This document shows positions 25,091 through 39,147 of a DNA stretch of 64,000 nucleotides, in pieces. Location of the stretch: the NCBI GenBank assembly GCA_018969975.1, contig JAGWXI010000003.1:902-64901 (forward strand). The letters run 5' to 3'. The position numbers and the translations under genes are program-made. Position 1 is the stretch's first letter; every line of letters starts with the position of its first letter. The notes below the pieces were generated by a model. The model was not told the origin of the DNA and did no database searches. It saw nothing but the letters and a program-made list of their open reading frames with translations. The DNA comes from Burkholderiales bacterium (GTDB taxonomy: Bacteria; Pseudomonadota; Gammaproteobacteria; Burkholderiales; Burkholderiaceae_C).

Positions 25091-28000
25091 TCAAGGTGCG
25101 CGCAGCCGCGATATAGATTCAGTGAGATTCTGCCAAGCGGGTTGCAGGGGTGCGTAGCGCTCCCGCATCCAAGCTACGATTTCTGCTAATTGCTGGTCGT
25201 TAAGGCTGTTTGCAAATCCCGGCATAAAACCAATCTCACGTGATGCGGGTCGTTGAACGCCTTCCAAAATAACCCGAATCAAATTGTCTGGCCTCTCACT
25301 ATGCAATTTGGAACTGAGCGCCAAGGGATGATTCAAGCCAAGCACTTGCGGACCTTCACCATCGTGGTGGCAACTTGCGCAACTGCCCTCAAACTGTCTT
25401 TGTGCGGAACTTGGTAATGGCGCAAATGCGGCTGCATATTGCACGACCTCCAACGCCTGCGTTGCAAGTTGAGGGGTTTCCTTCACAGGGTTGAGGCTAC
25501 TCAAGTAAACAGCCATAGCACGCAAATCACTCTCTCCCACCGCTTGTAATTCTCTTATGACTTGAGCCATGGGGCCTGCGGCCATGCCATGCTGAGGGCT
25601 GTGGCCTTTACGTAAATATTGGTAAAAGGCCTCTTGTGACCATGGCACAGGGCTTCTATTGAAAGCGTTCAATGCAGGTGCTTCCCAGCCATCAACCAAA
25701 GCACCTTGCATATAAGATGTTCGACTTTTCTCGGCACCTAAGAAACCACGAGGTGTATGACATCCTCCACAGTGCCCCACACCGTTGACTAACTCAGCGC
25801 CTCGATTCCAAGCATCAGACTGATTAGCATCGGGTAAGAACCGCGTCTCGGTGTGAAATATCGCATTCCAAAATCCCATCAAAGGCCGCAAATTAAAAGG
25901 AAAAACAAGTTGCGTTTTCGGCGGTCGCGACGACACCGGGGCTTGCGTCATCAAGTAAGCGTACAAAGCCATCATGTCTTCGTCGCGCATTTGTGCAAAG
26001 GCTGTGTAAGGAAAAGCTGGATACAGCGCATGGCCTTCGCGCGATATTCCTTCGCGCATAGCGCGCTCGAACGCACGAAAAGTCCAACCCCCGATGCCGG
26101 TCTCTTTATCGGGTGTGAGATTGGTGGTGTAAACCGTGCCAAATGGTGTGGTCATCGCACGACCACCTGCATTATGTTGTCCATTTTCTGATGTGTGGCA
26201 ACCAGCACAATTGCCTAATGCAGCGACTTGTTGTCCGCGTGCCAACATACTCGCGCTAAAGGAAGACACTTCCACTCCAGCTACTTTGGGCAGACTACTT
26301 CGCCAACCCAGCAATGCTCCACTAACGGTCAAGACACCCATTGCAAAAGCAGAGATTTGCCCTATTCGTCTTCGCCAATAAGGCTTTTGGGCAGGTTGTT
26401 GCGTAAAGGCAGGTTTCCACTTTTTCCATATTGGGGTCGTTTTGTTCGAACCGGTTGAATTGGTACTTACGCTCGAGTCCCCTAGAGGATGCAAAGCCGC
26501 ACGAACCACCTCTGGCGTAAAGGGCGGGTTTCGAAAGCGAATTCCAGTGGCATCAAAAATAGCGTTTGCAATTGCCGCAGTACCCGGTACAGATGATGAC
26601 TCCCCGGCTCCCAAAGGCACCTCATCTTGTCTCGGCATTTGCATAACTTCAATAACTGGCACCTCACGAAAACTCAAAATTGGATAGCTCCCCCACTCTT
26701 GGCTCACCACACTGCCGTTTATGGGGTTCGTTTGCACTTGTTCTTTTAAAGCACGACTGGTGGTTTGCACCACATTTCCATGGACTTGGTGTTGCACCCC
26801 TTGCGGATTGATCATCAAACCAGCATCGTGTCCCACCACCACTCTTTTTACATGTACCTCACCTGTAAGGCGATGTACTTGCACATCAGCAACCCATGCG
26901 GCCCAAGCTGCGCCAAACCCTGGCCACTTGCTGTGAATGTAACGCGCATAGGCAAAACCCTGTCCTTGAAGCCACTCCCCTTCGCGGGCTTGTTGTTGCG
27001 GTTGAACATGCGACTTCCATTGCGCACGATTAGCAGTGGCTTGCACAAGTTCATGCGCTCGCGGATCTTGCAAGATACGTAAGCGGTATTCGACGGGATC
27101 TACTTTGGCCGCAGTTGCTAACTCATCGATATAGCTTTCATGCGCAAAAGAATTGGGTAGCGCCGACACTCCACGCAACCAAGAAGCACGCAATATAGGT
27201 GGCATATCTTGTACACGCACTCGTAGATTTTTGTAGTCGTAGGGAGGGCGTGCAGTGCGGTCACCCATCTCAAAAGCTCGGGCCAAAGGCTCAATCGTGC
27301 GGGTTAACAGCAATGCCAAAGTGGGTGCACCATTCGACGGGTAGGCTGTTTGAAAGTCGTAGGCGGCAGGCGTGCCGTCGGAATAGATACCCCCCCGCAC
27401 TTGCATCAGTTGCGCAGCGCCTTTGGGCTCCCAAACATGCTCTTGCTCGCGGGTTAACTGCACGCGTACTGGTGCAAGCACAGCGCGAGATAACAAGGCA
27501 GCATCAGCCGTCACATCATCAGCCCCATTTCGGCCGTAACATCCTGCAGCCTCCATGCGAACAACATCTACAGCGGTATCTGCAATACCCATCAAGAGAG
27601 CTAAATCAGCTCGAAGGACGTGCGGATTTTGGCTACCCGACCAGACCCGCAATTGAATCTGTGGCGCTTCAGGGTCACCCTTTTCCATCCAATGTGCAAC
27701 AGCACAGGAAGGCCCTAGGGAGGCATGCATCTGGTAAGGCCAAACATAAGTGCGATCCAGAGTTTTATCCGCGTCTAGCAGGGCCTGGTCAACTTGGCCT
27801 TCATTGACTAACTCGCGCGTGGTACTGGATTGGTTACGTAAGGCTTGCTCAATATCTTCTAACCCGCGAATACCTGGCCAAGACTTCCAGTGAACCTCTA
27901 GTTCAAGCAAAGCTTGCTCTGCATGTTCTTCACGTTGCGCAACTACGCCAACAAAGTCGCGTTGCGTCACAACCGCCAAGATACCTGGAATGTGATGGAT

Positions 28001-28753
28001 GGACGCTGGCTCTACACGCTCCAAGGTGTTTCCAATAAAGTCCCCGCTATCAACCCCCGCATAAGGCGGTCGCACTACTCGACCATGTAGCATTCCCGGT
28101 AATCGCATATCGTGCACAAACGTCGTTTCACCCTTAACTTTGGCTAACAAATCCACCCGTGGCAAATTGGTGCCTATCAAGGTGTAATCCGCAGGAGTCT
28201 TCAGTGTGACGCTGGTATCAAGCATCAGCTGCGTCCGTTGGCCTCGTAACCATTGACTAATGTTTGCAGCTTGCGTGGGGCCTCGCACAACACCATCGAT
28301 CATCTGCAACACTGAAACTTCCAAGGACCAAGCTTTTGCAGCTTGCTGCAGGAGCCAATGCCGAGCTTGCGCACACGCATAACGCAAGGGTTGCGCATGG
28401 ATTTGTAAAGAAGCGCTAGCAATGGTGGCGCCTTGGTTTGGAGCCACTGCGGTATTGCCCATTACCACCCGAACCCGCTCAGGCAAGATATTCAGTTCCT
28501 CTGCTACCACCTGTGTTAAAGCGGTACGCAAACCAGTGCCCAAATCCACATGACCATGAAAAGCCGTAACGCTACCGTCATCCCATAAAGCCAATAAAAA
28601 TTCGAGGCCCTCAGCTGGATTTCCCACCACTAAAGCAGGTTGGCCGGGGCTTGGTGGTGGAGCTGGTGGCGGGTCTCGCGCGATCAGCAAGACACCTTGG
28701 GCGACATGCAAATCGGCGCGGCTAAGCGCGAGTTTTGCTCGTAGGTCACTCAT
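25091..28753 (-). CDS. nicB: Nicotinate dehydrogenase large subunit (NicB-like): xanthine-oxidase-family molybdopterin domain fused to tri-haem cytochrome c
   Basis: GHVDLGTG, GMLHGRVVRPP, PLGAGE, ANAIFDATGIRFR; one hydrophobic helix followed by CAGCH, CGGCH and CASCH; ATG at 28753 overlaps the upstream stop; substrate inferred from context. Confidence 0.82.
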   Translation of the reverse strand: MSDLRAKLALSRADLHVAQGVLLIARDPPPAPPPSPGQPALVVGNPAEGLEFLLALWDDGSVTAFHGHVDLGTGLRTALTQVVAEELNILPERVRVVMGNTAVAPNQGATIASASLQIHAQPLRYACAQARHWLLQQAAKAWSLEVSVLQMIDGVVRGPTQAANISQWLRGQRTQLMLDTSVTLKTPADYTLIGTNLPRVDLLAKVKGETTFVHDMRLPGMLHGRVVRPPYAGVDSGDFIGNTLERVEPASIHHIPGILAVVTQRDFVGVVAQREEHAEQALLELEVHWKSWPGIRGLEDIEQALRNQSSTTRELVNEGQVDQALLDADKTLDRTYVWPYQMHASLGPSCAVAHWMEKGDPEAPQIQLRVWSGSQNPHVLRADLALLMGIADTAVDVVRMEAAGCYGRNGADDVTADAALLSRAVLAPVRVQLTREQEHVWEPKGAAQLMQVRGGIYSDGTPAAYDFQTAYPSNGAPTLALLLTRTIEPLARAFEMGDRTARPPYDYKNLRVRVQDMPPILRASWLRGVSALPNSFAHESYIDELATAAKVDPVEYRLRILQDPRAHELVQATANRAQWKSHVQPQQQAREGEWLQGQGFAYARYIHSKWPGFGAAWAAWVADVQVHRLTGEVHVKRVVVGHDAGLMINPQGVQHQVHGNVVQTTSRALKEQVQTNPINGSVVSQEWGSYPILSFREVPVIEVMQMPRQDEVPLGAGESSSVPGTAAIANAIFDATGIRFRNPPFTPEVVRAALHPLGDSSVSTNSTGSNKTTPIWKKWKPAFTQQPAQKPYWRRRIGQISAFAMGVLTVSGALLGWRSSLPKVAGVEVSSFSASMLARGQQVAALGNCAGCHTSENGQHNAGGRAMTTPFGTVYTTNLTPDKETGIGGWTFRAFERAMREGISREGHALYPAFPYTAFAQMRDEDMMALYAYLMTQAPVSSRPPKTQLVFPFNLRPLMGFWNAIFHTETRFLPDANQSDAWNRGAELVNGVGHCGGCHTPRGFLGAEKSRTSYMQGALVDGWEAPALNAFNRSPVPWSQEAFYQYLRKGHSPQHGMAAGPMAQVIRELQAVGESDLRAMAVYLSSLNPVKETPQLATQALEVVQYAAAFAPLPSSAQRQFEGSCASCHHDGEGPQVLGLNHPLALSSKLHSERPDNLIRVILEGVQRPASREIGFMPGFANSLNDQQLAEIVAWMRERYAPLQPAWQNLTESISRLRAP

Positions 28754-29223
28754 TCCGTAGCGGCCATTAAGGCGCAGGCTCGATTCAACGCATCCATAAT
28801 TTCCAGATGAGCACCGCATCGACAAAGATTTCCAGACATGGCATTTCGAATGTGCGCTTCAGTTGGCTTTGGATTCTTATTGAGCATGGCAACCGCTGTC
28901 ATAACCATGCCGTTTAAGCAGTAACCGCATTGAGCTGCTTGGGCATCAACAAACGCTTGCTGCACAAAATGCAATTTTTTCCCAGTGGCGAGCCCCTCTA
29001 GGGTAGTGATAGATCGGTCTTGCACTTCGCTCGCGGGTATCACACATGCCCGAGCAGCAATTCCGTCAACGAGCACAGTGCATGCACCACACTCGCCTAA
29101 TCCACAGCCGTACTTGGGTCCATTGAGTCCTAAGTCGTTGCGCAAAACATGAAGCAAAGTTGCCTGCTTGGTGAGCGACAAACTATGTGTCTGACCATTG
29201 ACGAACAACTGGACCTGTTTCAT
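28750..29223 (-). CDS. nicA: Nicotinate dehydrogenase small subunit, two [2Fe-2S] clusters (NicA-like)
   Basis: GCGLGECGACTV, QCGYC, NLCRCG; coupled to the large subunit; AGGA precedes ATG 29223. Confidence 0.82.
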   Translation of the reverse strand: MKQVQLFVNGQTHSLSLTKQATLLHVLRNDLGLNGPKYGCGLGECGACTVLVDGIAARACVIPASEVQDRSITTLEGLATGKKLHFVQQAFVDAQAAQCGYCLNGMVMTAVAMLNKNPKPTEAHIRNAMSGNLCRCGAHLEIMDALNRACALMAATE

Positions 29224-29237
29224 CGTTCCTATCAGGT

Positions 29238-29960
29238 TCAAGTTATCTTCAGATCGCTCGACTGGATTCGCTTGACGCCCTTAGTCGCCATATTTTTCCA
29301 TGCAGCGTCAACCGAGCCATTGAGGTCAATCCCGCGACAAGCATCTTCCACCACATAGGTGGTAAAGCCCGCAGTGCGAGCATCTAAGGCGGTCCACGCC
29401 ACGCAAAAGTCTGTCGCCAAACCGACCACAAAAACGGTGTGGATGCCACGTTGTTTGAGATAACCTGCTAGCCCAGTTGCGGTTTTCCTATCTGCCTCCA
29501 TGAAGGCTGAGTAGCTGTCAACATTAGCGTGGTAACCCTTACGTAAAACCAATTGGGCCGTTGGGAGTTTGAGGTCGGGGTGCAGCGCCGCATCGTTGCT
29601 GCCTTGGACGCAATGGTCGGGCCACAGCACCTGCGTGCCGTAGGGCATGTTTGTAGTCTCAAAGGGTTTTTTACCAGCATGGGCACTAGCAAATGAGGCG
29701 TGTCCTTGAGTGTGCCAGTCTTGCGTAACGATGATGTTGGCAAAAGCGGAGGCAATTTTGTTGATCACGGGTACAACCTCTGCCCCTTTAGCAACGGGTA
29801 GGGTTCCACCTTCTACAAAGCAATTCTGCACATCAACTACTATCAATGCGGACTTGTTGCTGGGTTTTATTTTCTCTGCTGAGAGCGCCCAAGGTGCCAT
29901 CGTTCCTAACGCACTCAAAATTCCGATCGAACTAACAAGTTGTCTACGATTTTTTTGCAT
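29238..29960 (-). CDS. pncA: Nicotinamidase/pyrazinamidase with N-terminal twin-arginine-like signal
   Basis: VDVQNCF, QDWH, LWPDHC, RKG...DSYSAF, ATDFCV; N-terminus NRRQLV plus hydrophobic stretch. Confidence 0.92.
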   Translation of the reverse strand: MQKNRRQLVSSIGILSALGTMAPWALSAEKIKPSNKSALIVVDVQNCFVEGGTLPVAKGAEVVPVINKIASAFANIIVTQDWHTQGHASFASAHAGKKPFETTNMPYGTQVLWPDHCVQGSNDAALHPDLKLPTAQLVLRKGYHANVDSYSAFMEADRKTATGLAGYLKQRGIHTVFVVGLATDFCVAWTALDARTAGFTTYVVEDACRGIDLNGSVDAAWKNMATKGVKRIQSSDLKIT

Positions 29961-29995
29961 AGTTTTACCCCTTTTGAAATCATTGAGAAAAAAGA

Positions 29996-30736
29996 CTAAA
30001 CACTTAAGTAATTTCGCTGCACCTCTTCGTCATCTAATAAATCTTGCATCGGAGCCTCATGACGAATTTGACCTTTTTCAAGAATGTAGGCACGGTCTGC
30101 GACCCACTGCGCAAAATGCAAGTTCTGTTCAGACAACAAAATGCTGACGCCTTCAGCCTTGAGTGCCAAGATCATATCGGCCATTTGTTCAACGATAAGC
30201 GGCGCTACGCCTTCGGACGGCTCGTCCAGCAACACTACCAAGGGGTTTGACATCAACGTTCGCGCCACTGTCAGCATTTGTTGCTCTCCGCCACTCATGC
30301 GCCCGCCAGCGCGATCTTGCATCTCGCCAAGGTTGGGAAACAGCTTAAATAATTTTTCATGAGTCCATAAGGGCGCTGGTGTTCCGTCAGGAAACAGTCG
30401 CGCTGGTTGGCGCCCTACTCTCAGGTTTTCTAGAACTGTCAGTTCTCTAAAGATGCGACGATCCTCGGGTACATACCCAAGGCCTTGTCGAGCCACTTGA
30501 TAGGGTTCAGCATGGGAGATATCTCGGTTTAAGAAACTAACCTGTCCACTGCGCTTGGTCATCATGCCCATGATGGCTTTGAGGGTCGTAGATTTACCTG
30601 CACCATTTCGCCCCATCAAGGCCACTACCTCGCCGCGTTGAACCTGAAGGCTCACGTCGAACAGAATATGTGCAGCACCATACCAAGTGTTGAGCTCTTG
30701 GGTCTGAAGCAATGAGTTGGGAGTCATATTCATCAT
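29996..30736 (-). CDS. LIV-type ABC transporter ATPase (LivF-like)
   Basis: GRNGAGKST, MSGGEQQML, LLDEPSEG. Confidence 0.9.
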   Translation of the reverse strand: MMNMTPNSLLQTQELNTWYGAAHILFDVSLQVQRGEVVALMGRNGAGKSTTLKAIMGMMTKRSGQVSFLNRDISHAEPYQVARQGLGYVPEDRRIFRELTVLENLRVGRQPARLFPDGTPAPLWTHEKLFKLFPNLGEMQDRAGGRMSGGEQQMLTVARTLMSNPLVVLLDEPSEGVAPLIVEQMADMILALKAEGVSILLSEQNLHFAQWVADRAYILEKGQIRHEAPMQDLLDDEEVQRNYLSV

Positions 30737-31497
30737 TATTTTTTTTGTTCGAAGGTTTTGCCGCTACCAAAATAGACCTCTTTTACTCTGGGATGATCGC
30801 GGATGTCTTTTGGCAGTCCTTGCGCAATCAATTGGCCCCGCGCCAAAACAATGATTCGATCTGCAAAACCGAAAACTACGTCCATGCTGTGTTCGGTAAA
30901 GAGCACAGCCATACCACTTTGCGTCACCAACTCACGGGTCAGTGCCATCAGTTTGTTACGCTCTGAAGGAGCCATACCTGCCGTAGGTTCGTCCATCAAC
31001 AACAAGCGGGGATGGTTGGCCATTGCTATCGCTAACTCTAATCGTTTGACATCTCCATAAGCGAGTTCGCTACAAGGGCGTTCAGCTTGTTCCACCAAAC
31101 CTACCTGTTCTAGCAAAGCCAGCGCATCCGTTCGACGGTAATGTGTGGCGCGTTGCCACATCGAAAACAAGTGGTTGTCATCAGACAACATAGCCATCTG
31201 TACGTTTTCAACCACTGTCAATGAATAAAAAGTTTCTGCCACTTGGAAGGTTCGACTCACCCCCATTTGCCAAACCTCGCGGGGATGCAGTCCCAGTAAC
31301 GATTTGCCTGCTAGGGTAATTTGACCAATGTCCGGGCGCAGTTGTCCATTTAGCATATTGAAAGTAGTTGACTTACCAGCTCCATTAGGACCAATCAGGG
31401 CTAATAATTCGCCAGCAGCGAGATCAAAACTAATATCGTCTACCGCGAGGTTACCGCCAAAAGATTTGCGAAGGCCTTGTACACAGAGCAAGTTCAT
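30736..31497 (-). CDS. LIV-type ABC transporter ATPase (LivG-like)
   Basis: GPNGAGKST, LAYGDVKRLE, MDEPTAG; start MNLLCV at 31497. Confidence 0.9.
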   Translation of the reverse strand: MNLLCVQGLRKSFGGNLAVDDISFDLAAGELLALIGPNGAGKSTTFNMLNGQLRPDIGQITLAGKSLLGLHPREVWQMGVSRTFQVAETFYSLTVVENVQMAMLSDDNHLFSMWQRATHYRRTDALALLEQVGLVEQAERPCSELAYGDVKRLELAIAMANHPRLLLMDEPTAGMAPSERNKLMALTRELVTQSGMAVLFTEHSMDVVFGFADRIIVLARGQLIAQGLPKDIRDHPRVKEVYFGSGKTFEQKK

Positions 31498-33404
31498 AGG
31501 GCACCACCTTGACGTGCTTTCCGTGAACGCAACCAATCTTGGACAAAGCCTGCTAGTCCTTGTGGGAAAACCATCACTAGCAACAAAATTGTTCCACCCA
31601 AGACTGCTCGCCAGTAGTCAGTACTACGAGCAATCGTATCTTGCAAGGTTGTAAAGGTGATCGCCCCGACCAAAGGACCGACCACAGTTTGGACGCCACC
31701 CAACAACACCATAACTAAGCCATCCACTGATTTGGTGACACCCAAAGCGTCGGGCGAAATACTGCCCTTAGAGAACGCAAACAACGCTCCCGATAAACCT
31801 GCAAATGTCGCAGCCACAACAAATCCAACCCATTGCAGACGTTTGACATGCATGCCAATTGCTTCAGCACGTACCACCGAGTCACGACTAGCACGCAAAG
31901 CGTAACCAAATGGAGCAAACAACATACGACGCAATGCATAAATTCCAAGGATACAAAAACCCAAAGTAAGGTAGTAATAGATACGCTTATTGGCTAGCCA
32001 AGGACTCGGCCATACGCTGGTGAGTCCGTTACTTCCCCCCGTGAAGCTATCCCATTGAAAACAGATCGACCATAATATTTGACCAAACGCTAAAGTCAGC
32101 ATGGCAAGGTAAACACCCGATAAACGAACGCAGAACCAACCGATCAAAGCAGCTGCAATAGCAGTTAGCAATGGCGCAAAAATCAAAGTTAATTCCATAG
32201 GCATTTGAGCGCGCAGAACCAAAAGAGCTGCAATATAAGCGCCCAAGCCAAAGTACGCCGCATGTCCAAAGGAATGCATTCCTGCAGGCCCCATGATGAA
32301 GTGCAAACTGCAGGCAAATAGTGCTGCAGTCAATAAATCGATTGCCAAAACTGTTGTGTACGGTGATTGGGAAGTGAGATGGGGCAAAGCCCAAAGCACC
32401 ACCAAACACAAAATCCAAATACCCCACTGCATTTGACTGACCAATCGCAAAGGTGCTTCCCCTTCCCCTGGATTACGGGGCGTGCTTTGCGGTTTACCCA
32501 TTAAGCCCCATGGACGCAGCATCAATACCAAGGCCATTACCAAAAACTCTGCTACTAATGTAAGTTTTGAAAAGGCAAAACTGGTTCCCCATAATTCCAC
32601 GGTTCCTAAACCCACGCACAAGGCTTTGATTTCAGCAATCAACAATGCCGCAACATAGGCTCCAGGAATCGAACCCATACCACCTACCACCACAACCACA
32701 AATGCGTCGCCGATGGTCAATAAATCTAAACCTAGATTGGCAGGTTCGCGCGGCAATTGCAATGCACCGCCTAGGCCAGCAAGTGCACAGCCCAACGCAA
32801 ACACACCGGTAAATAACCAGTGTTGGTGAATGCCCAAAGCGCCAACCATTTCTCGGTCTTGCGTAGCTGCACGCACCAGGATGCCGAAAAGGGTTCGGTT
32901 CAACAGCAACCACATCAGCCCCAAGACCAAAGGCCCTACTACGATCAATAACAAGTCATAGGTGGGAAAACGACGACCCAAAATATCAATGGCACCAGAA
33001 AAACCCGGCGCGCGCGGGCCTAACAAGTCTTCCGGTCCCCAGATCCATAAAGCGGCATCTTTGATAACCAATACCAAAGCAAAGGTAGCTAATAGTTGAA
33101 ACAACTCAGGCGCACGATAGATGCGTCGTAAAAGTAGCATTTCTATTAACCCGCCCAACAAGCCAGTTATCAAAGCTGCTAATAACAACCAGCACCAAAA
33201 ACTCAGGGCCAATCCGACCGAACGACCAAAATACTCAACCAAGGAGTAGGCAATATAAATACCCAGCATGAAAAACGAGCCATGGGCAAAGTTGACGATA
33301 CGCGTGACCCCAAAGATCAACGACAGTCCAGCGGAGACTAAAAATAAAGAGGACGCACCGGCCAGACCGTTGAGCGCTTGGACCACAAAGCCAGAAAAAT
33401 CCAT
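31494..33404 (-). CDS. Fused LivH-LivM-type ABC permease
   Basis: First half GLSLIFGVTRIVNFAHG; second half SFGHAAYFGLGAY and GVYLAMLTLAF; start MDFSGF at 33404. Confidence 0.88.
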   Translation of the reverse strand: MDFSGFVVQALNGLAGASSLFLVSAGLSLIFGVTRIVNFAHGSFFMLGIYIAYSLVEYFGRSVGLALSFWCWLLLAALITGLLGGLIEMLLLRRIYRAPELFQLLATFALVLVIKDAALWIWGPEDLLGPRAPGFSGAIDILGRRFPTYDLLLIVVGPLVLGLMWLLLNRTLFGILVRAATQDREMVGALGIHQHWLFTGVFALGCALAGLGGALQLPREPANLGLDLLTIGDAFVVVVVGGMGSIPGAYVAALLIAEIKALCVGLGTVELWGTSFAFSKLTLVAEFLVMALVLMLRPWGLMGKPQSTPRNPGEGEAPLRLVSQMQWGIWILCLVVLWALPHLTSQSPYTTVLAIDLLTAALFACSLHFIMGPAGMHSFGHAAYFGLGAYIAALLVLRAQMPMELTLIFAPLLTAIAAALIGWFCVRLSGVYLAMLTLAFGQILWSICFQWDSFTGGSNGLTSVWPSPWLANKRIYYYLTLGFCILGIYALRRMLFAPFGYALRASRDSVVRAEAIGMHVKRLQWVGFVVAATFAGLSGALFAFSKGSISPDALGVTKSVDGLVMVLLGGVQTVVGPLVGAITFTTLQDTIARSTDYWRAVLGGTILLLVMVFPQGLAGFVQDWLRSRKARQGGAL

Positions 33405-33424
33405 GTCATCACAATCAATGAAAA

Positions 33425-33452
33425 TCAGCGTGCTAACGAGAAAGCACGCTGA
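33425..33452 (-). terminator. Stem-loop after the binding-protein gene (partial terminator or mRNA stabiliser)
   Basis: Perfect 10-bp stem TCAGCGTGCT/AGCACGCTGA, followed by TTTTC on the minus strand. Confidence 0.65.
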
Positions 33453-33466
33453 CAAGAAAGATCTGC

Positions 33467-34672
33467 TTAGTCGGCAGCGCGTAGTTTCTTGACTTCTTCG
33501 TTGCTCGGTTGAAAGTTAGCACCGTCAAGGTAGCGATAGTCCACCATCACGCCCTTACCGTTCTCGTTTTTGATGCGTCCAACAAAGGCACCCATTGTGG
33601 ATTGATGGTCTTGGCCACGAAAGGTCACTTTACCAAACGGGCTTGTCAAACTAAGCTCGCGAAAAGCAACAGCTAGTTTTTCAGAGTCAGTGCTGCCAGC
33701 TTTTTTGATGCCAGCGGCCAAAGCCTGGATCATGGTGTAGCCCACTACGGAACCTAAGCGAGGATAGTCATTGAACTTAGCTTGGTAAGCACTTAAAAAA
33801 GCTTTGTGCTCGGGAGTATTAATACCATTCCATGGATAGCCTGTGACGATCCAGCCATTAGGTGTCTCGTCCTTCAAGGGATCCAAGTACTCAGGCTCAC
33901 CCGTGAGCAAACTCACAACTTCGCGTCCTTGGAACAAGCCGCGGGTATTGCCTTCACGTACGAACTTGGTTAAGTCCGCGCCAAAGAGCACGTTGAAGAT
34001 AGCATCGGGCTTTGCATCAGCGAGCGCTTGAGCCACCGCGCCTGCGTCGACTTTACCCAGCGCTGGCGCCTGCTCAGCGACAAACTCCACATCAGGTTGT
34101 GCGGCTTTTAGTAATTGCTTGAAAGTGGCAACGGCAGATTGGCCATATTCGTAGTTGGGATAGACCACTGCCCAGCGCTTTTTCTTAAGCTTGGCTGCTT
34201 CTGGCACCAACATTGCCGATTGCATGTATGTAGAGGCGCGTAATCGGTAGGTGTATTTATTACCCCCTTGCCAAACGATTTTGTCTGTAAGCGGCTCACC
34301 CGCGAGGAAAAAGAATTTCTTTTGTTTAGAGAAATCTGTGACCGCTAAACCAATATGCGAGAGAAAAGTTCCGCTGAGAAGGTCAACTTGTTCACGCGAG
34401 ACCAACTCTTCGGCAGCTCTAACTGCATCGCCAGGATTAGCATTGTCATCACGAATGAAGAGTTGCAGTTTTTTTCCATTTACACCACCGGCGGCGTTAA
34501 TTTCGTCGACCGCTAGATCCATGCCTTTTTTGTAGGGTTCCAAAAAGGCGGGCTGGGCTTTGTAGCTATTGATCTCTCCTATCTTGATGACGCTTTGTGC
34601 AAATACCGGGGCAAGACCAACTGCCAATACAACAGCAACTGCTGTGTGGGTCAGATTACGAAAACTTTTCAT
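33467..34672 (-). CDS. ABC transporter periplasmic binding protein (LivJ/K-like fold; probably nicotinate-related)
   Basis: Signal peptide ending VFA-Q, IKIGEINSY, EINAAGGVNG; ligand inferred from context. Confidence 0.85.
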   Translation of the reverse strand: MKSFRNLTHTAVAVVLAVGLAPVFAQSVIKIGEINSYKAQPAFLEPYKKGMDLAVDEINAAGGVNGKKLQLFIRDDNANPGDAVRAAEELVSREQVDLLSGTFLSHIGLAVTDFSKQKKFFFLAGEPLTDKIVWQGGNKYTYRLRASTYMQSAMLVPEAAKLKKKRWAVVYPNYEYGQSAVATFKQLLKAAQPDVEFVAEQAPALGKVDAGAVAQALADAKPDAIFNVLFGADLTKFVREGNTRGLFQGREVVSLLTGEPEYLDPLKDETPNGWIVTGYPWNGINTPEHKAFLSAYQAKFNDYPRLGSVVGYTMIQALAAGIKKAGSTDSEKLAVAFRELSLTSPFGKVTFRGQDHQSTMGAFVGRIKNENGKGVMVDYRYLDGANFQPSNEEVKKLRAAD

Positions 34673-34716
34673 ACTGGCTCCTTTAATAAATTGAGACTGA
34701 ACTATGCGCCGACCAT

Positions 34717-35301
34717 TCATCGTAAACCATCTTGGCCGACGATTTCTGAGGCTTGCAATCCGCCAATGCGAGGCAAAGGCCGACCGCTATCCGTGACGAC
34801 AACTGCAACCACGATTTCATTGGCCCTTGGTGCATCGCTCACACGCGCTTCCATGGCATCAAAGTGGCTACGTACGAAAGCTGCATCTTTGTGCCCTAAC
34901 GGGACATCAATGATGGTTCCTAATGTGCCGCGTTTTTTAGCTGAAGGAACCAACGCCGCACCATGGCTCACGGCCTTACGTAAAGGCGCGCCTAATTTGG
35001 GATGCAAGATAGCGGCTGCATGCTCTAGTTCGCCATCTTCGCCCACGATGGCAGCTTTGCCGTAACTTTGCGCTTGGTCTGGCGATATTCCCAAGGCCTG
35101 AACACAGCGCTGACCCAACAAACCACCTAACTCTTCACCCATCTCAATCAACACGTCAAGATTAGGGCTGTATTTGCCCGCATAAGGGTTATCAATCACA
35201 GCCATTGCAAGAGCTTGGCGTGTAGGGGGTTCTACGCTTTGCCCACCTTCGGTGTGGGTTTCGTCGATTTGCACAACAATTTTGCGAATTTTGGCTTTCA
35301 T
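34717..35301 (-). CDS. DUF1185 (amino acid synthesis family) protein, paralogue B
   Basis: AVIDNPYAGKY, YGKAAIVGEDGELEH, VRSHFD, DAPRANEI, RIGGL. Confidence 0.87.
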   Translation of the reverse strand: MKAKIRKIVVQIDETHTEGGQSVEPPTRQALAMAVIDNPYAGKYSPNLDVLIEMGEELGGLLGQRCVQALGISPDQAQSYGKAAIVGEDGELEHAAAILHPKLGAPLRKAVSHGAALVPSAKKRGTLGTIIDVPLGHKDAAFVRSHFDAMEARVSDAPRANEIVVAVVVTDSGRPLPRIGGLQASEIVGQDGLR

Positions 35302-35313
35302 GGGTTTTTTCTC

Positions 35314-36213
35314 CTAAACATTTAAGCAGGCTTTAAGCCCAACTATTTCGATTTGCCCTTGGCAATACAACAGGGCAGCAAATATAAGTCCTTGCGTTTG
35401 CAATCCTTGTGCATATTGTTGTCCTCTCTCCAATGCTTGGGCTACAACTTTTGGTGCAAGTACTGGCACATCCACCGTCACCCGACGCGAACCCAAGTCC
35501 GTATCGTCAAGTAATTGATTAGCGGGTTGTCGCACTATGCTTGGATCGTCACAGTTCACAGCATTTGCAATTAAGGTTGCTGCAGCATCTGCCTGTGCTG
35601 CCGTTGCCGCTAAAACAGTAACACTATCTGCAATACCGAATGAGTGACTTCGACCCCGCCAACCGCTAGTAGCAACACCTCGCACAGGCATTTGTGCCTC
35701 GATAAGCAGTTCTCCATCAAGTAGTAACTCGGAGTCAGGATCACGCCCCATGGCCCGCGTGATGTCGCTTACCAAGCCAATTTGTACGGAAGTATCGTTG
35801 GTCAAATAGAGGGCAATATCGCCCCCATTGTTTACCCATGCGCGCTCAATACCAGATCTCTGGTAGGACGATAAAACAGCTTGCGCTACAGCGCCCGCCA
35901 CGGCCGCCATCGACGTAATAAACCCTTCGGGATGTGTCAAAGTAGGTTGTGCTAAGGGCGCACAGGCCTCCCACATACTGCGCGCGATAGTGCCCCGCAT
36001 GGGATTAGACGCACACAAATCAATGGCTCTTCGCAACTGCGCTAACTCTTGCACCAGTTCAGGCAGCATGGTTTGAAACTGCGCCCAAGCGAGTTCGTGC
36101 GCGCTGAGAACGCAATTTGGTTCTCCATCTGCATGTACCGTTAAGTCAATTGGGCCGTGTCGAAAATGCCAACACTGTGGATTGCGGTTGTAACGCTGAG
36201 CTGTCATCAACAT
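35314..36213 (-). CDS. UPF0280 / ApbE-like protein
   Basis: HGPIDL, MAAVAGAVA, NNGGDI, GVATSGWRGRS, ADAAATLIAN; ATG at 36213 overlaps the hnr stop. Confidence 0.85.
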   Translation of the reverse strand: MLMTAQRYNRNPQCWHFRHGPIDLTVHADGEPNCVLSAHELAWAQFQTMLPELVQELAQLRRAIDLCASNPMRGTIARSMWEACAPLAQPTLTHPEGFITSMAAVAGAVAQAVLSSYQRSGIERAWVNNGGDIALYLTNDTSVQIGLVSDITRAMGRDPDSELLLDGELLIEAQMPVRGVATSGWRGRSHSFGIADSVTVLAATAAQADAAATLIANAVNCDDPSIVRQPANQLLDDTDLGSRRVTVDVPVLAPKVVAQALERGQQYAQGLQTQGLIFAALLYCQGQIEIVGLKACLNV

Positions 36214-37805
36214 CAACCCAACATTGGTGGGTTGTCTAACGGCCAAGGACTATCACTGGCAGGAGGCGCCACCCACCGAATCTGCTTAGGCGCGCCATCA
36301 TTGTGCCAAGCGCCGTACTTTAAGCTGTTATCCAAACTGCGTACGTACCCCATATGCCCACCCAACGTTTCGTAGTCAGACAACCGCATGGTGAACTCGA
36401 TCGGTGCAACGATAGCGGGTGTTGGAACTGTGCCAAAACTACCAGGCGGCATGCGCATCACGTCCACCATGATGGTGATTCCACCACCCGGCCAAACATA
36501 AGAAGGTGCTCCGCCACAAGTAACGTTCACTAATGCACGCTTTATTGCATGTGTTAATTGCACAGGGTTGTCTGTGACACCAGCTCGCAAACTCCCACCC
36601 GCACCTCCTAAAAATAATACAGAAACCATCGACGGTTCACAGTTTTCACCAATGCGATCAACCACCCGACGAACACTGGCTGGCATCTCCGCTATTTGCG
36701 GTTGGAGTTGATCGTCGAGTACATACCAAGCAGAATGTTCGCCCGTAGTTGAGGTCATCAATAAGCGAAGCCCAGACCACGCAACAGCACTGTCCCATGG
36801 ATCCAAGATAGCAAGGGGGTCTTGGATATCGGTGCCACCCCATCCTGTGCCCGGATTAGCAACTTGGAAGTAACGCCCCGGTGTTGACTTGCGCCCTTTT
36901 ATACGAATTCCACTGGGCTGCATGTTCAAACAGCGTCCAGCCTGGTGCTCTGACAATACTCCGGTGATGTGGTCATCCACCACCACCACTTCATCGCACA
37001 ACCCTAACCACTGCTGGGCAAAAATGCCAATGGCGGCCGATCCGCAACCAACGCGCATTCTTTGTTCAGTTATCCCGTTGACGATCGGGGGTTGCCCAGC
37101 TTGCAACACGACGTTAGCGCCACCATCGATACTGACTTCCACCGGATGGAGGTTACAAAGGTCTTGCATCATGTTCATGGTGACGCGGCCTTCTTTTTTA
37201 GTACCTCCCGTCAAGTGATGAACACCGCCTAGGCTAAGCATTTGTGAGCCATATTCGGCCGTCGTAACATGCCCCACCACTTCACCATTACACCGCACCG
37301 CTGCTTGTTCAGGTCCAAGGTAGCGGTCAGTGTCGATTTTTACTTTCAAACTGCAATAACTAAAAATACCTTCAGTAACTACCGTCACCATATCGACACC
37401 GCGCGATTGCGAAGCGACTATGAAAGGCGCTGGTTTGTAATCGGGATAGGTTGTGGAAGATCCGATGCCGGTAACAAACATACCCTGGGAATCACTCGGT
37501 TGTTTGTCCTCCACACTTACGCTTAAAGACCCACGCTCCGATAAATCTGAGATCTCACTTGCACAAGTTGAACCTTGTCGTAGCACCACAACTGGGTCGA
37601 TACGAATCAAAATTCCTTTGCGATTGGCATACCGATCACATGCACCTACGCGACCATCAGAGATTTGACACAAGACGGGACAAGCATTGCACTCCACCTT
37701 ATCACCGATCATCTGTTCATTGCGAAGTGCAGATCGCTCCATCCCCCATTGGAGATTCACATCGTCTGAACTAGGCAGGCCGTCACCTTTGATGTGGGTC
37801 GTCAT
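36213..37805 (-). CDS. hnr: 6-hydroxynicotinate reductase-like Fe-S protein
   Basis: N-terminal CNACPVLC...GACDRYAN Cys cluster; TTYPDYKPAPFIV, VTVVTEGIFSYC, EYGSQMLSLGG, VDDHITG, VWPGGGI; divergent from enamidase; ATG 37805 likely start. Confidence 0.85.
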   Translation of the reverse strand: MTTHIKGDGLPSSDDVNLQWGMERSALRNEQMIGDKVECNACPVLCQISDGRVGACDRYANRKGILIRIDPVVVLRQGSTCASEISDLSERGSLSVSVEDKQPSDSQGMFVTGIGSSTTYPDYKPAPFIVASQSRGVDMVTVVTEGIFSYCSLKVKIDTDRYLGPEQAAVRCNGEVVGHVTTAEYGSQMLSLGGVHHLTGGTKKEGRVTMNMMQDLCNLHPVEVSIDGGANVVLQAGQPPIVNGITEQRMRVGCGSAAIGIFAQQWLGLCDEVVVVDDHITGVLSEHQAGRCLNMQPSGIRIKGRKSTPGRYFQVANPGTGWGGTDIQDPLAILDPWDSAVAWSGLRLLMTSTTGEHSAWYVLDDQLQPQIAEMPASVRRVVDRIGENCEPSMVSVLFLGGAGGSLRAGVTDNPVQLTHAIKRALVNVTCGGAPSYVWPGGGITIMVDVMRMPPGSFGTVPTPAIVAPIEFTMRLSDYETLGGHMGYVRSLDNSLKYGAWHNDGAPKQIRWVAPPASDSPWPLDNPPMLG

Positions 37806-37956
37806 GGGATGAGTGGTACCGTGATTAGTTTGTGGAATCACTAATATAACAACTAACGCATAAACCACAGTAGGTGAAATTCCCCTAGAAACCGGCGTGT
37901 CGAGGCATTACGATTTGCATACCCACTCTTAGTTAGCTATACATTGGAGCAAGTAA

Positions 37957-39147
37957 ATGGCCACGGCAACCGTTGAAGAAAAATCTGGAAAAGTTGTAAT
38001 ACGTAATATTGGATTGATGCTTTCTGGGGACATTGACCGTCCCATATTGAATGCCAATACTATCGTTATCCATGATGGGATCATCACCGCAGTCGGACAA
38101 GAAAAAGATTGCGATATTTCACAAGCAAAAACCACCATCGACGTGCGCCAAACATGTATTGCTCCTGGGTTGATAGACAGCCATGTGCATCCCGTATTTG
38201 GTGATTGGACACCTCGCCAAAACCAATTGGGCTGGATTGAGTCGACTATGAATGGTGGCGTCACCACGATGATTTCAGCTGGTGAAGTCCACTTACCTGG
38301 TCGACCCAAAGATATATTGGGCCTCAAGGCATTAGCCATCACAGCACAACGTGCATTTGATAATTTTCGCCCTGGGGGCGTAAAAGTGATTGCTGGTGCG
38401 CCTATCATTGAAAAAGGAATGACGGAACATGACTTCCAAGAACTTGCTGAAGCTGGGGTCATGCTCTTAGGTGAAGTTGGGCTAGGGTCTGTAAAAGCTG
38501 GCTACGAAGCCAAGGAAATGGTATCTTGGGCTCGAAAATATGGCATACAAAGCACCATTCATACAGGTGGGCCGTCCATTCCTGGTTCAGGTTTAATTGA
38601 TAAAGATGTCGTTCTTGAGGCGGATGCTGATGTGATTGGACACATCAATGGCGGTCACACCTCATTACCTGAATCTCACGTGTGTGAACTTTGCGAAAAG
38701 TCCATCAGAGCTATAGAGATCGTGCACAACGGTAACGAACGAGTTGCAATTGCAGCAGCAAAAGCAGCTTTAGAACTCAAGTGTCCGCATCGAGTTATTT
38801 TGGGTACTGATGGACCCGCGGGATCGGGTGTTCAACCATTAGGAATGCTTCGAATGATCGCCTTACTCTCAAGCTTGGCAAATATTCCAGCCGAGTTGGT
38901 TTTTTGTTTTGCAACTGGGAACACTGCGCGAATCCGTCAATTAAATTGTGGACTGATCGAAGTAGGTCGGGCAGCAGACTTTGTGTTTATGGACAGGGCG
39001 CAACATACTGCTGGAAAAACATTGCTTGAGAGCGTCAGTTTGGGCGACATTCCAGGTATTGGTATGGTGATGATTGACGGTTTGATTAGGTGTTTTAGAA
39101 GTCGTAACACCCCACCAGCGACAGAGGTACCCCAAGTAGTTCACTGA
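37957..39147 (+). CDS. ena: Enamidase-like binuclear amidohydrolase
   Basis: PGLIDSHVH, GDWTPRQ, ISAGEVHLPGRP, GEVG, IHTGG, GHINGG, LGTD; adjacent to hnr. Confidence 0.85.
   Translation: MATATVEEKSGKVVIRNIGLMLSGDIDRPILNANTIVIHDGIITAVGQEKDCDISQAKTTIDVRQTCIAPGLIDSHVHPVFGDWTPRQNQLGWIESTMNGGVTTMISAGEVHLPGRPKDILGLKALAITAQRAFDNFRPGGVKVIAGAPIIEKGMTEHDFQELAEAGVMLLGEVGLGSVKAGYEAKEMVSWARKYGIQSTIHTGGPSIPGSGLIDKDVVLEADADVIGHINGGHTSLPESHVCELCEKSIRAIEIVHNGNERVAIAAAKAALELKCPHRVILGTDGPAGSGVQPLGMLRMIALLSSLANIPAELVFCFATGNTARIRQLNCGLIEVGRAADFVFMDRAQHTAGKTLLESVSLGDIPGIGMVMIDGLIRCFRSRNTPPATEVPQVVH

Follow-up and report, generated by a model that had tools for sequence, protein, structure and literature searches.

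A nicotinamidase with a predicted twin-arginine leader in a nicotinate degradation cluster of a Burkholderiales bacterium

The pncA locus encodes a nicotinamidase precursor

The window analyzed here is a 64,000-nucleotide stretch of contig JAGWXI010000003.1 (assembly GCA_018969975.1) from a Burkholderiales bacterium. At positions 29238..29960 of its minus strand (stop codon included) lies pncA, an open reading frame (ORF) that starts with ATG and encodes a 240-residue nicotinamidase precursor, the N-terminus of which reads MQKNRRQLVSSIGILSALGTMAPWALSAEKIKP. A first-pass annotation of the window had called the product PncA, a nicotinamidase with a twin-arginine leader, and the enzyme assignment is borne out by its score, its best structural match and its invariant residues. 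The protein scores 195.9 bits over residues 36-237 with the NCBIfam PncA equivalog (NF008623, cut-off 174), and its best match in the PDB is the Acinetobacter baumannii nicotinamidase 2wt9 (E = 5.3e-92, query residues 33-237). In an alignment of 12 PncA homologues (alignment A1), all 12 of which are matched by NF008623, residues D43 (VVDVQ), K141 (RKG) and C186 (TDFC) are invariant and align with 2wt9; by homology to D8, K96 and C138 of the Mycobacterium tuberculosis enzyme, we take these three residues to be the catalytic triad. The PncA metal ligands (D-x-H, His, His), represented by D81, H83, H87 and H116, are likewise invariant in A1. Taken together, these features make it very probable that the enzyme of the window is a nicotinamidase.

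The catalytic domain of this protein begins only at approximately residue 33-37, since the Pfam Isochorismatase domain covers residues 37-230, the NCBIfam match starts at residue 36 and the alignment to 2wt9 starts at residue 33. Judged from its sequence, the ORF is thus a true PncA with about 30 additional N-terminal residues. The predicted mature catalytic domain comprises residues 29-240 (29241..29876, minus strand), aligns to 2wt9 from residue 33 and includes Cys47 within the segment DVQN-C-F, to which we return below.

The N-terminal extension resembles a Tat signal peptide

Residues 1-28 (MQKNRRQLVSSIGILSALGTMAPWALSA; 29877..29960, minus strand) have the layout of a signal peptide for twin-arginine translocation (Tat), an assignment based on the paired arginines and overall layout conserved in homologues and on disorder in an AF2 model. 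The n-region MQKNRR is followed by the h-region QLVSSIGILSALGTMAPW, a hydrophobic core rich in Gly, Ser, Thr and Ala, and by a c-region with a small-residue ALS/ALSA site before Glu29, so that cleavage by signal peptidase I is predicted after residue 27 or 28. The codons of the twin arginines (R5 and R6) lie at 29943..29948 on the minus strand; R6 is invariant in A1, and position 5 is either R or K. Within N-R-R-Q-L-V (residues 4-9), the arginine pair is followed by two hydrophobic residues as in the Tat motif. In the AF2 model, which was built from a 12-sequence alignment and is of moderate quality (mean pLDDT 69), residues 1-24 are devoid of secondary structure, with pLDDT values under 50, and the first element of the fold is the strand formed by residues 37-44. 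The description given in the first-pass annotation for 29238-29960, an arginine pair, a hydrophobic stretch and an Ala-ending site ahead of the catalytic domain, therefore holds.

If translation started at an internal codon, or if the leader were non-functional, the product would be an ordinary cytoplasmic PncA, and an in-frame methionine, Met21, could serve as such a start. However, Met21 is replaced by Val in an 88%-identical homologue and by Ile in others and is therefore not the conserved start, and the following methionine lies inside the fold. In addition, a Shine-Dalgarno-like AAGGGG (29968..29973, minus strand) ends 7 nt 5' of the pncA ATG, and GGAG is found at the equivalent spacing 5' of the MK(A/T)DRRKLL start in orthologues of the same genus. 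The start at Met1 is thus upheld.

The leader is conserved among PncA homologues, and the genome encodes the Tat machinery

Among the 120 best database homologues (71-100% identical), nearly all are about 240 residues long and carry the same type of leader. The 103 full-length close homologues represent 68 distinct leaders, 64 of which contain RR, three KR and one neither. These 68 leaders have the consensus [TA][DQS]-R-R-x-[LF]-L-x-[AS], a median length of 28 residues and a mean h-region hydropathy of 1.19, and residues other than the arginine pair vary from one leader to another. At the position equivalent to the predicted cleavage site, homologues have AMA, AWS, AFA or VLA before [AGS]-K-I-K-P. 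At the level of gene loci, 76 of the 80 nearest genome loci encode an RR-type leader, and the remaining four encode one RK leader, one classical Sec leader, one leaderless PncA and one garbled leader; the PncA search as a whole matched at least 599 species-level genomes. With conservation of this extent, the twin-arginine leader predicted for the PncA of the window is not a product of chance. The garbled locus (L049:10001-10645) keeps MQRRDFV and has a charged, non-hydrophobic stretch in place of the h-region, which may reflect a frameshift, an assembly error or decay.

Several orthologous leaders are also scored by curated Tat profiles: PF10518 matches one of 12 (E = 2.7e-4), TIGR01409 five of 12 (best E = 0.014) and formate_TAT three of 12. 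In the genome of the window, a permissive Tat-like filter is passed by 51 of the 3079 ORFs of at least 150 residues, and both PncA paralogues of this genome (see below) are among the 51. The genes tatA, tatB and tatC are found together on contig C23, where TatC (223 bits) and two TatA/B-family genes form one run.

Export by the Sec pathway, or anchoring in the membrane, is the closest alternative to Tat export; the arginine pair would then be a plain positive n-region, and both folding and metal uptake of the enzyme would take place in the periplasm. Consistent with this alternative, the leader of the window is short for Tat (approximately 28 residues), lacks a basic residue in its c-region and goes unscored by the Tat profiles, Sec-type leaders are common among distant PncA homologues, and one orthologue (L058) has a plain Sec-type leader. 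In contrast, a mere need for positive charge would not predict that RR, followed by [LF]-L, is near-invariant in leaders that otherwise vary freely. Moreover, the mean hydropathy of the h-region (1.22 in the window and 1.19 among the distinct leaders) is well below the 1.98 of the Sec leader on the neighboring binding protein, and the profile matches of orthologous leaders also argue for Tat. We therefore regard the Sec alternative as improbable and consider it likely that the PncA of the window is exported to the periplasm by Tat. The exceptional orthologue, L058:10001-10621, is betaproteobacterial and lies in a full importer-pncA-nicAB layout; its classical Sec-type leader reads MKIILIALLLCLSAATHA followed by AD, and it has no RR leader.

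pncA lies between an ABC importer and nicotinate degradation genes

Directly upstream of pncA and in the same run, an ABC importer of the LIV type occupies 29996..34720 on the minus strand, an assignment made from Pfam matches and from synteny in 31 Burkholderiales loci. Its components are a binding protein (33467-34720), a fused LivH/LivM permease (31494-33455) and two ATPases (30736-31536 and 29996-30736), and 35 nt separate the end of livF from the start of pncA. The binding protein has a Sec-type leader; its start is probably Met17, and its N-terminus reads MKSFRNLTHTAVAVVLAVGLAPVFA followed by Q. On the other side of pncA, nicA (encoding the 2Fe-2S subunit) and nicB, identified with Pfam and NCBIfam and conserved beside pncA, occupy 25091..29241 on the minus strand, with the likely nicA ATG at 29223, 14 nt past the pncA stop codon. 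NicB consists of a molybdenum cofactor (MoCo) domain, one hydrophobic helix and three cytochrome c domains. It lacks an N-terminal signal and has basic residues ahead of the helix, a pattern by which its Mo domain should be cytoplasmic, in which case nicotinate would have to be imported.

The rest of the nicotinate cluster extends over 34717..39147 on both strands. The minus strand carries a DUF1185 gene (34717-35301; Pfam AA_synth), a UPF0280 gene (35314-36246; NF003322) and a putative hnr-like gene of 551 residues (36213-37868) that is syntenic in at least 30 loci. The divergent gene on the plus strand (37957-39147) encodes an enamidase that matches the Eubacterium barkeri enzyme (PDB 2vun) over its full length (E = 5.5e-106). 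An ORF at 37929-38462 (minus strand, 177 residues) is probably spurious, because it runs antisense to the enamidase gene, within which it lies, and matches no family; its apparent conservation in tblastn is due to the enamidase gene on the opposite strand. The gene order on the minus strand is therefore hnr-like gene, UPF0280, DUF1185, binding protein, LivH/LivM, the two ATPases, pncA, nicA and nicB. Co-location of a nicAB-type hydroxylase, an hnr-like gene and an enamidase defines a nicotinate cluster of the hnr/enamidase type, and the importer-pncA-nicAB arrangement is kept in 31 Burkholderiales loci. The genome also contains pncB.

The Tat-type leader is a clade-wide trait rather than a property of nicotinate clusters

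The first-pass annotation had raised the possibility that Tat-type PncA tracks with hnr/enamidase clusters, and this is only partly the case. Linkage to nicAB/hnr was found for 35 of the 76 RR-type loci, all from Betaproteobacteria or unclassified, but the other 41 lie outside nic clusters, and 31 of those 41 are alphaproteobacterial. In Bradyrhizobium, for example, the Tat-type pncA is located among housekeeping genes, between dnaK and grpE/hrcA. Hnr itself was detected in 15 genomes of an order sample of 201. In the 14 hnr-positive genomes other than that of the window, pncA is no more than 15 kb away from hnr in four, on the same contig at a distance of 32-197 kb in three and on another contig in four; the remaining three gave no PncA match, indicating that pncA is not a constant member of the cluster. 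Wherever the importer and nicAB occur together, in 32 loci, PncA is of the exported type, with a Tat leader in 31 and a Sec leader in one.

A second PncA, 62% identical to the first, is encoded in the genome of the window on a 3-kb contig, where its gene follows panD (G000:C120:845-1549, locus L003). It also has an RR leader, MKRRHFVSIFPLSLAAPLSLAVS, in which MKRRHFVS is followed by a hydrophobic stretch. This paralogue is the only other PncA found in this genome, and no cytoplasmic PncA was found there. The first-pass annotation had placed the exported enzyme next to the ABC binding protein and had further proposed export as a means of separating catabolism from the NAD recycling of the cell. 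The first part of this proposal fits the position of pncA directly after the importer and before nicAB in an hnr/enamidase cluster. The second part is not supported, because with an RR leader on the C120 paralogue as well and no cytoplasmic PncA found, export cannot separate the two processes. A restriction of the Tat leader to catabolic clusters was likewise rejected, given the Bradyrhizobium contexts and the second paralogue. Instead, the leader is a clade-wide trait, ancestral in a large PncA clade of Beta- and Alphaproteobacteria, and is no adaptation of this particular cluster.

The nicotinate cluster itself is variable among near relatives. The closest PncA, 85% identical, is that of Limnohabitans sp. 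JirII-31 (L005), which has an RR leader and is not beside nicAB, and the genes flanking it are 97-98% identical to other contigs of the genome of the window.

The leader was lost secondarily in a sublineage of the genus

To place the leader in the wider family, the 150 best representatives of clusters at 50% identity were classified; 58 are leaderless, 13 have a Tat-like and 18 a Sec- or transmembrane (TM)-like N-terminus, and the others are fragments or have other extensions. In a tree of the catalytic domain only, the Tat forms fall mostly into one clade, which contains both paralogues of this genome. Within the genus of the window, the nicotinate cluster occurs in three layouts: the importer together with Tat-type PncA (the window and L092), Tat-type PncA with no importer (L088-L091, also L007 and L008), and a leaderless PncA, starting MSLISP, with no importer (L093-L099 and L060). 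In the leaderless layout, the gene order is hnr-DUF1185-pncA-nicAB, and an in-frame stop is present 6-15 codons 5' of the pncA start.

In a focused tree, the eight leaderless genes form one clade on a long stem (support 100/100), and this clade is nested in a clade (96/86) of 21 Tat forms and one Sec form, indicating that the leader was lost secondarily. In a DNA alignment, the leader segment is absent from the leaderless genes, which start approximately 17 nt after the DUF1185 stop codon. Short matches upstream of these genes that resemble a vestigial arginine pair (SRRSAL and SRRFAL) were rejected, since they are the 3' end of DUF1185 in another frame.

These genes bear on whether the PncA of the window might, after all, be cytoplasmic. 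In a sister sublineage of the genus, the same cluster contains a leaderless PncA, so that the pathway could also operate with a cytoplasmic enzyme. However, truly leaderless relatives have no leader DNA, so that an unused leader appears to be deleted rather than retained, whereas the leader of the Tat-type genes is conserved at the protein level in hundreds of sequences. Combined with the substitutions at Met21 and the Shine-Dalgarno sequences ahead of Met1 in the window and its orthologues, this makes a cytoplasmic enzyme highly improbable.

The importer is missing in nine of the 10 leaderless cases. The joint occurrence of importer and exported PncA fits functional coupling between them, although it derives from very few independent events.

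Cys47 accompanies leader-bearing forms

Position 47 (codon at window positions 29820-29822) is the variable residue of DVQN-x-F, the segment that bears the catalytic Asp43. In the focused tree, this position is Cys in all Tat and Sec rows and Gly in the secondarily leaderless clade. A similar distribution was observed among diverse representatives, in which Cys47 is present in eight of nine Tat-like and 12 of 18 Sec/TM-like sequences and in four of 56 leaderless sequences; Sec-type representatives that look eukaryotic also have Cys at this position. In most leaderless representatives, residue 47 is an Asp after which Phe-Cys often comes next, and 25 of the 56 have Cys at position 49. Cys117, beside the metal ligand His116, occurs in 81 of 83 representatives, and a compartment-specific disulfide between Cys47 and Cys117 is possible. 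The correlation of Cys47 with a leader across lineages provides independent support for the leaders being functional.

The same residue raises the question of substrate. An exported enzyme might act on a periplasmic amide other than nicotinamide, such as another pyridine- or pyrazine-carboxamide or a small amide, because isochorismatase-like hydrolases accept many amides, residue 47 is systematically Cys as opposed to the Asp or Gly of cytoplasmic PncAs, and the nicotinamidase activity of the clade is a prediction. Nevertheless, the catalytic domain strongly matches a structurally characterized nicotinamidase and scores above the equivalog cut-off, all PncA-specific metal ligands are present, and the adjoining nicotinate-degrading genes fit nicotinate as the product. 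On balance, a different substrate seems unlikely.

A model for periplasmic deamidation of nicotinamide

What is observed here is the identity of the enzyme, the conservation of its leader and of the gene order, and the presence of tat genes in the genome. From these we infer export itself, the site of cleavage, the loading of the enzyme with metal ahead of export, and the binding of nicotinate by the importer. In the resulting model, the PncA precursor would fold, and probably take up its metal, in the cytoplasm before export by TatABC and cleavage by signal peptidase I near residue 27-28. The periplasmic enzyme would then hydrolyze freely diffusing, uncharged nicotinamide to nicotinate and ammonium. 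The nicotinate anion would be captured by the Sec-exported binding protein and pumped into the cell by the adjacent ABC importer. Once in the cytoplasm, nicotinate could either enter the degradative route, in which NicAB hydroxylates it and Hnr and enamidase follow, or be directed by PncB toward NAD. Overall, we consider this sequence of events, in which exported PncA deamidates nicotinamide in the periplasm and the adjacent ABC system imports the nicotinate, to be fairly likely. That the product of PncA is what the adjacent importer takes up is slightly favored.

Several observations weigh against this model. The leader of the window has L-V-S where the consensus S/T-R-R-x-F-L-K has F-L-K, and its c-region contains no basic residue. 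PF10518 and TIGR01409 did not match it at E values up to 10, and the Tat-signal profiles did not match the leader of the C120 paralogue either. Export of every member of the clade is a prediction from sequence, and the catalytic cysteine must remain reduced in an oxidizing compartment. With regard to the importer, the best family match, that of the binding protein, is UrtA-like and far below the cut-off, and six loci have Tat-type PncA in the cluster but no importer. Finally, an importer orthologous to that of the window (binding protein 82% identical) is followed by a leaderless PncA at L100 (G208:C33:52000-64755), with no nicAB/hnr nearby, an arrangement that would fit import of nicotinamide itself.

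Comparison with characterized systems

The PncA of A. baumannii (PDB 2wt9 and 2wta) has the same catalytic Asp, Lys and Cys and the same metal ligands as the PncA of the window. It differs in that the alignment begins at residue 27 of the 235-residue 2wt9 chain, leaving no room for an equivalent leader, and in having Gly at the position of Cys47. Classical cytoplasmic PncAs, including those of M. tuberculosis (3pl1, E = 3e-25) and yeast (Pnc1, 2h0r, E = 3e-22), share the same fold and chemistry, and the NAD-salvage enzymes (E. coli, 3pl1 and 2h0r) carry out the same first step of the Preiss-Handler pathway but are leaderless. No signal peptide has been reported for the characterized bacterial PncAs of A. 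baumannii, M. tuberculosis and P. horikoshii, and our literature search found no description of a periplasmic, Tat-dependent or signal-bearing bacterial nicotinamidase. PncA with a Tat-type leader is common in nature and apparently undescribed. The secreted isoform of Caenorhabditis elegans PNC-1 is also an extracellular nicotinamidase, but it belongs to a different clade and would use a eukaryotic signal of the endoplasmic reticulum type.

A catabolic role for a nicotinamidase has a precedent in a betaproteobacterium, since NaaA of Alcaligenes sp. P156 starts the degradation of nicotinamide through nicotinate; NaaA is distant from characterized nicotinamidases and 27% identical to the Arabidopsis enzyme (PMC6403243). 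In contrast to the leader-bearing PncA of the window, NaaA was cloned from the first ATG with no signal peptide reported, and it feeds a 2,5-dihydroxypyridine/maleamate pathway rather than the Hnr/enamidase route (PMC6403243). The hnr/enamidase cluster, counterparts of which are present in the window, has been described in Azorhizobium caulinodans and Bradyrhizobiaceae SG-6C (PMC3511419, citing Alhapel et al. 2006). Passages of that paper dealing with the cluster take the orthologous importer of these pncA-less alphaproteobacterial clusters to be a nicotinate transporter and make no mention of pncA (PMC3511419), whereas in the window and 31 Burkholderiales loci a Tat-type pncA is located between the importer and nicA.

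Implications for vitamin B3 acquisition

Neither NadA nor a quinolinate phosphoribosyltransferase (NadC) domain was found in the genome of the window, which is 89% complete. A search for NadA in 12 members of the genus, several of which are 99-100% complete, found none, whereas seven of eight genomes belonging to other families in the order gave a match. Members of the genus may be auxotrophic and depend on salvaged vitamin B3. Any PncA is present in only 14 of 31 genomes of the genus. Although the genus is a possible B3 auxotroph, the genome of the window carries a cluster for the degradation of nicotinate.

A tentative extension, which we consider rather unlikely as a whole, is that the location of PncA is evolvable. 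Exported forms, of the Tat type in proteobacteria and of the Sec type in other lineages (eukaryote-like ones among them), would have independently gained a Cys47 that pairs with Cys117 as a periplasmic disulfide or redox switch, and the cysteine would have been lost together with the leader in the Limnohabitans-like sublineage. In a genus that apparently lacks NadA and NadC, B3 would then enter the cell mainly by way of periplasmic deamidation, as both cofactor precursor and source of nitrogen and carbon.

In textbook schemes, nicotinamide is deamidated in the cytoplasm, and to our knowledge most bacteria lack a dedicated high-affinity nicotinamide importer. If periplasmic deamidation holds true for this large clade of soil and freshwater Proteobacteria, it would convert nicotinamide into an anion that can be concentrated by a binding-protein-dependent importer, and it would account for the LIV-type importers in nicotinate clusters. 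A cysteine hydrolase metalloenzyme would also join the list of Tat cargo. Within one genus, this gene occurs in the same operon with a Tat leader, a Sec leader or no leader, which constitutes a natural experimental contrast. Finally, if the model is correct, current views of B3 scavenging and cross-feeding in these communities would need to change.

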